Assembly (NCBI GenBank): GCA_964016885.1
Contig: OZ024758.1
Location: 7,440,001-7,504,000 of the forward strand
Origin: Eledone cirrhosa
Taxonomy: Eukaryota
Reading direction: 5' to 3'
DNA: 64,000 nucleotides
Notes under the pieces: model-generated
The model's database searches: none
Told to the model about the DNA's origin: nothing
The model's input: the letters and a program-made list of their open reading frames with translations, nothing else
In this document: positions 38,058 through 38,685 of the stretch, one piece after another
Position numbering within the stretch: position 1 is the first letter of the stretch
Layout of the letters: every line of letters begins with the position of its first letter
Program-made: the position numbers and the translations under genes

Positions 38058-38503
38058 CATACATACACATACATATACATGTATATATATATACGTGTGT
38101 GTGTGTGTTTGTGTATATCAAAAGTATATATATTGAGTTAGAAACTCAGAATAATCCCTTACAATTAAAATGGCTCAAGGAAAACATTTTCCGAGCCATA
38201 TAATATAATTTAATATAAAATAGAGAGAGAAACACAGATATTTACATATATGTGTTCAAATCAAAAGGGACCCAAGTCGCCGGGGTGAAGAAGATACTAA
38301 CTATGAACAATACGGTTTGCCAGACTCAATTAAAAGAATAAATTAAGAAATAGTACAAACCGAATTGTAATAACTATCAAACATCTGGACAGCCTTTGGT
38401 AGAACTGTTTCGCATCAAGTGAAGGGAATTACCAATTCCATTGCTCTTAATATATATATATATATATATATATAGTTATGTAATAAACGACATAAGGCAA
38501 TTA

Positions 38504-38563
38504 TTCCATTTACCAGTGGTTTCTTAAAAGCAAAAAATTTTGCTTTCAATCATCAGAATGAAA
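38504..38563 (-). ncRNA. Type I hammerhead ribozyme, canonical
   Basis: tttcatt-CTGATGA-ttgaaagcaaa attt tttgcttttaa-GAA-ACC act GGT-A-aatggaa. Stem I 7 bp, stem II 11 bp, stem III 3 bp, GUA site; lies in a ~160-bp island between two (TA)n tracts. Confidence 0.85.
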
Positions 38564-38628
38564 AAAATCCTGGTGTATTTATTGATATTGGATTCTATTG
38601 TTTTTTCCTGCACTTTTCCGACAGAATT

Positions 38629-38685
<57 letters not shown>

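Follow-up and report, generated by a model that had tools for sequence, protein, structure and literature searches.

We found that a short island bounded by TA tracts, lying within a window of 64,000 nucleotides (the whole 64-kb stretch of DNA that was analysed), is very probably a minimal, non-coding insertion of an endonuclease-bearing Penelope-like retroelement (PLE) in (TA)n. The initial annotation had described a (TA)n-bounded island of about 160 bp built around a hammerhead ribozyme. Its borders hold: the island measures 159 bp (38475-38633) and is flanked by pure TA tracts on both sides, (AT)12.5 at 38450-38474 on the left and (TA)25 at 38633-38682 on the right. What these tracts enclose, however, reads as two rearranged pieces of a larger element's end rather than as a unit centred on the hammerhead. 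Animal genomes hold thousands of PLE-type minimal hammerheads, and as a ribozyme the island is ordinary; its value is mechanistic and lies in its split-and-inverted layout.

Island layout, tail and proposed insertion route

The island runs from a TA tract through a 126-nt ribozyme arm, a head-to-head junction and a tail-only arm to a second TA tract, and its two arms are consecutive, non-overlapping pieces:

38450..38474, no strand: (AT)n target tract, adjoining the 3' end of the ribozyme arm
38475..38600, minus strand: arm 1, 126 nt, a putative 5'-truncated terminal-repeat (pLTR-like) fragment that ends at putative reverse transcriptase (RT) start site 1 (38475)
38601..38633, plus strand: arm 2, the putative tail, 33 nt, recognised from read joints of other copies
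38633..38682, no strand: (TA)n target tract, adjoining the 3' end of the tail arm

Judged by its sequence, the island appears to combine what marks insertions of endonuclease-bearing PLEs, namely 5'-truncated arms placed head to head and a tail of 30-40 nt on one side only. Within arm 1, 38475-38594 is high-copy in public reads; the stretch 38595-38600 is little shared and could derive from the junction. A check for target-site duplications found pure TA repeats on both flanks, where a duplication would be hidden because the target itself is (TA)n. The island has no terminal inverted repeats, its sole inverted self-match being helix II of the hammerhead, and for this lack an origin as a MITE or DNA transposon was rejected. 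No tandem array is present at the island, and no second island copy in the 64-kb window. The junction at 38600/38601 is spanned by none of the pieces listed from the reads and could in principle be an assembly artefact.

The island was compared with four of the 11 public runs listed for it, two of contigs (X1 and X5) and two of RAD reads from one study (X9 and X10). It matches 1358 contigs in X1, 2349 reads in X9 and 2081 reads in X10, together with 28 contigs in X5, a run with another organism label. Read depth, which is not a copy number, is high over 38475-38594 and drops sharply beyond; from the many sequence variants we infer a family of at least hundreds of loci.

Other copies in the reads carry an opposite-strand joint from 38475 to 38601 (20 reads with four start points in X9, 18 reads with two start points in X10): they follow the minus strand down to 38475 and there, without overlap, switch directly to 38601 on the plus strand. 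These are nearly all the reads on 38601-38628 (depth 21-23 in X9 and 20 in X10), and they contain at least three sequence variants and therefore come from at least two loci. The joint occurs in two of the four runs, both of them RAD runs of one study, and is not listed for the contigs of X1 and X5. In the family, 38601-38633 directly follows 38475 in the sense of the ribozyme, and in the island it stands inverted at the far end. The length of this 33-nt stretch fits a PLE tail, described as a 30-40-nt extension confined to one of an insertion's ends (PMC8557442; PMC3846280; accessible parts) and shown to be the stretch between two internal RT start sites (PMC11167929). Eight of the nine joints listed are strand switches, that from 38475 to 38601 included, and one is a skip; further copies show fold-back joints at 38565-38567 and at 38594. 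In the RAD runs, depth is flat across the cleavage site of the hammerhead, where no joint lies among those listed, and the flat depth fits uncleaved RNA as the template.

We propose a route that resembles twin priming, and regard it as evenly poised between right and wrong. The GIY-YIG nuclease of the element would have cut both strands of the TA tract, and uncleaved RNA would have been reverse-transcribed from two internal sites, 38475 and 38633, separated by 33 nt. The copy begun at the tail end would have stopped where the other began, the other would have stopped after 126 nt, and the two would then have been joined head to head. The cutting of both strands, the two start sites and the use of unprocessed RNA are carried over by analogy from PAc, a Poseidon element found in Anolis (Frangieh et al. 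2024, PMC11167929), for which both-strand cutting, AT-rich targets, two start sites and an unprocessed RNA template have been shown. The island would share with PAc the AT-rich target and the uncleaved template, and in both the tail appears to be delimited by a pair of neighbouring internal RT start sites that lie downstream of the hammerhead. In PAc the distance from the cut to the start sites is about 85-90 nt and the ORF starts inside the hammerhead (PMC11167929), whereas site 1 of the island lies 36 nt past the cut and the island frame through the hammerhead is closed by stops. A tail-only inverted arm as in the island is not described for PAc in the accessible part of that source.

The geometry is also that of L1 twin priming, in which the outer end of an inverted 5' segment is the start of the direct segment (Ostertag and Kazazian 2001, as summarised in PMC9148063, accessible part). 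Priming of L1, however, uses the poly(A) tail and an internal site that varies, whereas the sites of the island appear fixed, internal and 33 nt apart. Published head-to-head PLE insertions have in common with the island the head-to-head arms, the one-sided tail of 30-40 nt and the (TA)n target, but their arms overlap and form palindromes (PMC3846280; PMC8557442; accessible parts), whereas those of the island are consecutive.

With the same PLE origin, the insertion could instead have been a palindromic fold-back, made by self-priming and composed of arm 1 inverted, arm 1 direct and the tail, that later lost its direct arm 1 by deletion or by collapse in the assembly. This alternative concerns the formation of the junction only, and we consider it possible, if somewhat doubtful. 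Palindromic forms are the common state in the island family (38565-38567 and 38594) as well as in the window's families A and B, and hairpins are unstable in genomes and in assemblies. Self-priming, on an antisense template, is moreover the published reading of such palindromes and the origin proposed for head-to-head arms of PLEs (PMC3846280, accessible part). The surviving arm begins at 38601, however, within a base of the end of arm 1 in the parent, and a random breakpoint over about 160 nt would fall that close about 2% of the time (a post hoc estimate). A single case is not enough to tell twin priming from a precise deletion.

The later steps of integration, by which PLEs would come to have head-to-head arms and a one-sided tail, were left unvalidated (PMC11167929). 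Consecutive arms split at the first start site are a prediction of two-site priming and not of fold-back, and twin priming at two fixed sites would, if true, explain both the head-to-head arms and the one-sided tail. The genome appears rich in such PLE stubs, and a genome-wide count could therefore decide between the models.

The ribozyme would be of the PLE terminal-repeat type and would serve to process precursor transcripts of the parent element; the solitary island copy is probably an inert passenger. Among 146 translated window segments (of 246 candidates), none gave a Pfam match to an RT or GIY-YIG domain, and the four Pfam matches obtained are weak and all below the cut-off. By analogy, the hammerhead together with (TA)n targeting makes Neptune or a related canonical clade likelier than Naiad: a bias towards (TA)n targets is described for both Neptune and Naiad, and Naiad is unlikely because its members lack hammerheads and the island has one (PMC8557442, accessible part).

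An improbable source of the island is a non-LTR retrozyme: transcripts of such a short, self-cleaving repeat are cut to monomers, circularised and reinserted, and the island would be a solo or broken unit of one. The type I hammerhead, the weak helix III, the high copy number and the lack of an ORF would suit this origin, as would a size near the 150-450-bp range. Non-LTR retrozymes are likewise type I, non-coding and high-copy, and in some families cleavage is assisted by dimers, as in our model of the island; those of the axolotl need dimers, and in one of them helix II begins with a U-U mismatch at its base (Cervera and de la Pena 2020, PMC7229834, accessible part). The two readings also overlap, in that retrozymes have been argued to be non-autonomous PLE derivatives (10.64898/2026.07.22.740005, accessible part). 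Retrozymes, however, form head-to-tail arrays that are cut into circular RNAs (PMC7229834, accessible part), whereas the island is a solitary, inverted two-arm structure with neither a tandem array nor a second copy in the 64-kb window. Its ends do not coincide with the cleavage site, and none of the nine listed joints is head to tail, although units longer than the 159-nt query would show none.

Hammerhead motif, its family and its predicted fold

The hammerhead lies within arm 1 and consists of the following parts:

38504..38563, minus strand: type I minimal hammerhead, with exact core, GUA site and a variation pattern in the family
38563-38557 with 38510-38504, minus strand: helix I of the motif, 7 bp (one U-G)
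38556-38550 (CUGAUGA) and 38523-38520 (GAAA), minus strand: hammerhead core, exact
38549-38539 with 38534-38524, minus strand: helix II, 11 bp (one G-U), with a 4-nt loop
38519-38513, minus strand: helix III region, CCACUGG and then UA, with the GUA site
38512..38520, minus strand: near-palindromic 9-mer, predicted to form helix III in trans; self-duplex of -8.2 kcal/mol with one central C-C mismatch
38554..38572, minus strand: predicted hairpin of 6 bp that blocks the monomer fold by pairing upstream sequence with the first part of the core

Cleavage is predicted between 38511 and 38510, after GUA. A loose hammerhead descriptor finds three real loci in the window against a mean of 0.12 (maximum 1) in 60 dinucleotide-preserving shuffles of the window in 500-nt blocks, both strands being scanned; a motif with stems I and II of at least 6 bp occurred in none of the 60. 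By its letters, 38504-38563 is a genuine type I hammerhead motif, and it is intact, because the island copy carries the family majority letter at every core position.

The elements first annotated are nearly all in place, with 7 bp in stem I, 11 bp in stem II, an exact core and a GUA site, but the annotated 3-bp stem III is impossible in the monomer because it would close a 1-nt loop; at most 2 bp can form, with a 3-nt loop. The helix II pair adjoining the core is U-A, and G10.1-C11.1 is missing, with neither register giving G-C. Position 38549 varies (U is replaced by C or A in 11% of the X1 depth) without variation at 38524, the base that it would pair with, and this would suit a free position; the register is ambiguous. 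No hammerhead family is among the 16 Rfam matches with E up to 10 in 38120-39200. For the whole window, the best 150 of 306 Rfam matches, nearly all of them miRNA models on microsatellites, include no hammerhead and none at the gathering score. The fold z-scores of the island hammerhead are -1.6 and -1.8. Given the helix III loop, the missing G10.1-C11.1, the lack of an Rfam match and the weak z-scores, "textbook", as the motif had been called, is too strong a word.

The motif has close counterparts in the minimal hammerheads of animal PLE pseudo-LTRs (Cervera and de la Pena 2014, PMC4209133, accessible part). It shares with them type I topology, an intact core, a helix II of more than 4 bp and a small palindromic helix III that needs a dimer, and, like them, it belongs to one of many divergent families in a genome, mostly solitary and sometimes in opposite-strand pairs. 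G10.1-C11.1 is highly conserved among them, though not absolutely, and is U-A in the island; in Schistosoma, helix II has 7-8 bp and helix I 4-5 bp, whereas those of the island are longer, with 10-11 and 7 bp (PMC4209133, accessible part). An active axolotl motif has U-U in the place of G10.1-C11.1 (PMC7229834, accessible part). A further difference from the PLE minimal hammerheads is that no linked ORF was seen for the island family within the window.

Variation in the family was counted in X1 at a 5% threshold. None of the 12 core positions varies, N7 differs in 45%, and all four positions of the helix II loop vary. Unconstrained positions vary in six of seven cases versus three of 53 for constrained ones (Fisher p 1e-5), or in five of six versus four of 54 if 38549 is counted as paired (p 1e-4), in a test that treats related copies and positions as independent and with a loop whose alignment, in A/T runs, is uncertain. 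The two commonest stem changes turn U-G into U-A (38506, 36%) and G-U into G-C (38526, 26%); pair-breaking changes are found at 38539 (14%) and at 38529 (1% in X1, about 7% in the RAD reads), and a change of G8 at 38551 occurs in RAD reads, from only one or two start points. A core that is invariant except at N7, beside a freely varying helix II loop, is a mark of selection acting on the core and the stems.

Loose ends at 38494 and 38532 belong to divergent subfamilies of the island family. In one, the 3' end differs and gives way to (TA)n a few bases beyond site 1, and its contig end is identical in X1 and X5, under two organism labels. The other has a different distal helix II and the core CUGACGA (160 and 147 reads, consensus agreement 0.6). 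Read ends accumulate at 38499 (869 and 840 molecules) and at 38628 but were rejected as signs of ribozyme cleavage: the RAD libraries are of DNA and the ends lie at AATT sites, from which we infer a RAD enzyme cutting at AATT. Metagenome scans with the island motif and the family A motif, and a viral scan with the island motif, gave no matches.

In models of the monomer, the active three-way fold has a probability of 9e-3 for the 60-nt core, 4e-4 for 38495-38575 and 1e-3 for the whole island, values that do not bear out the view of this motif as the best single candidate for activity. The leader of the 38495-38575 construct pairs with C3-U4-G5, and the fold-back joints of other copies at 38565-38567 map to the loop of the hairpin at 38554-38572. 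Two copies co-fold best as exactly the double hammerhead, at -31.4 kcal/mol versus a monomer MFE of -11.2 kcal/mol each. These models suggest that the island hammerhead is probably a dimer-dependent self-cutting motif, which would most likely cleave only as a double hammerhead (in tandem or from two RNAs) or with the help of a protein. Lunse and colleagues reportedly found in 2017 that PLE hammerheads cleave as dimers. Single minimal hammerheads of animal PLEs gave no detectable cleavage in vitro, and their dimers had low activity (PMC4209133, accessible part); the hammerhead of the Anolis element cut only with its own protein present (PMC11167929). Even with a functional motif, a 38495-38575 transcript would probably remain uncut, and such an outcome would not refute the motif, because single PLE hammerheads lack detectable cleavage.

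It is very improbable that the locus instead holds a stand-alone, monomer-active hammerhead with a role of its own. This would agree with the full core, which has the family majority letter at all positions, with the long helices I and II and with a GUA site, which occurs in natural hammerheads (PMC1636495, accessible part). Against it stand a helix III that cannot form 3 bp in the monomer, an active-fold probability of 4e-4 to 9e-3, the pairing of upstream sequence with the core and the missing G10.1-C11.1, and no gene context was found among the 146 translated window segments. The canonical monomer-active hammerhead, moreover, has a 4-bp helix II placed for contact with helix I, whereas helix II of the island has 10-11 bp.

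A possible splice-site overlap

We consider it unlikely that the island is a twin-priming fossil with two fixed sites and that, in addition, its GUA site served the parent element as a 5' splice site. A donor-like GUAAAU starts with the GUA site, and the tail has 17 pyrimidines in its first 19 nt, followed by CAG at 38622-38624, a possible 3' splice site. An intron of 63 nt may thus be outlined by sequence features, with GU at 38513-38512, a branch-like TAAC ending arm 1, and the pyrimidine tract and CAG in the tail. Acceptor-like strings number 23 in the 128,000 strand-bases of the window, two of them with a branch-like motif (a post hoc count), and family A of the window has no clear counterpart of the intron-like layout. 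Introns in the 5'-UTR of PLEs lie across the terminal-repeat boundary and measure 75 bp in Penelope (PMC8557442, accessible part). If the idea is true, one RNA would either be spliced (to mRNA), cleave itself or serve unspliced as a template, each fate excluding the others, and the overlap would give weak hammerheads a function and link them to the PLE 5'-UTR intron. In the literature searched, mostly without subscription papers, we found no report of hammerheads in octopus PLEs, of twin priming applied to PLEs or of a splice site within a PLE hammerhead. Lunse et al. 2017, Arkhipova 2006 and Repbase may already record the family and its layout.

Neighbouring insertions and other islands of the window

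The island lies among further TA-bounded pieces, and fold-back insertions of two other families, A and B, recur in the window:

38133..38449, minus strand: TA-bounded piece of another family, with only the 3' half of a hammerhead at about 38383-38412
38761..38940, plus strand: family B fold-back insertion, one arm of which is extended by about 75 nt
11464-11678, 35093-35334 and 44532-44735: fold-back insertions of family A, with a whole hammerhead and a 58-74-nt extension on one arm
35359-35532, 38761-38940, 46731-46805 and 62666-62875: fold-back insertions of family B, with a 75-80-nt extension

The annotated truncated hammerhead at 38383-38450 is indeed only a 3' half (GAAA, a 3-bp helix III and GUC), and it shares 12 nt with family A. 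The supposed family B relic at 38761-38940 likewise proves to be a copy of a fold-back family, with relatives at 35359-35532, 46731-46786 and 62666-62875; it scored 25 for an inverted end copy, and blastn confirmed the fold-back (E 2e-16). Repeated insertion into the same TA tract, as annotated, agrees with the four TA-bounded pieces in 38133-38940, but their order of insertion does not follow from them. The pieces of this cluster share no sequence with the island, and their arrangement is consistent with a TA-rich tract that received several insertions. Between the island and family B lies a 58-bp TA-bounded piece (38683-38740) that has no homologue in the window and may be another short stub; its alignment to the island was unconvincing, and it was rejected as an island relative.

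An inverted end copy with a score of at least 33, on a scale without a null model, is present in nine of the 37 TA-bounded islands of the window, and eight of these nine have an extension of 58-138 nt on one arm. Besides families A and B, the fold-back islands include 60770-60960, 36830-37064 and 44343-44511, with extensions of 61, 138 and 122 nt; on the other side of a TA tract, 44258-44280 repeats 44343-44365 in inverted form, perfectly over 23 nt. Family A has U-U or U-A at the helix II base, lacks G10.1-C11.1, has a GUA site and folds back at or just upstream of helix I. The arms of family B contain an apparent 3' half hammerhead (GAAA, a 4-bp helix III around a palindrome, and GUC), with no CUGANGA in view, and the fold-back points of three copies nearly coincide. 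The extensions of the two families have an 11-nt motif in common.

A complete type I hammerhead of an unrelated family (motif 30498-30581, minus strand) lies in the TA-bounded stretch 30319-30656. It has G10.1-C11.1, a 53-nt helix II region, a perfectly palindromic 8-nt helix III region and a GUA site followed by two donor-like GT strings, and its core appears, from the sequence, better formed than that of the island hammerhead at 38504-38563.

The window as a whole is AT-rich, microsatellite-dense and of animal type, presumably cephalopod to judge by its repeats, with no convincing protein gene among the 146 of 246 candidate segments translated. An open frame at 6559-6927 on the minus strand has no Pfam match and presumably resembles the C-terminal end of an RTE-type LINE protein, and at 45377-45541, also on the minus strand, a C2H2 zinc-finger match is weak and falls short of the Pfam cut-off (E 7e-4). 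An abundant short interspersed repeat, which we take to be the Octopus SINE, recurs at 17335-17433, 24438-24674, 37500-37650, 38951-39120 and 47433-47809, with some copies in tandem and one folded back.
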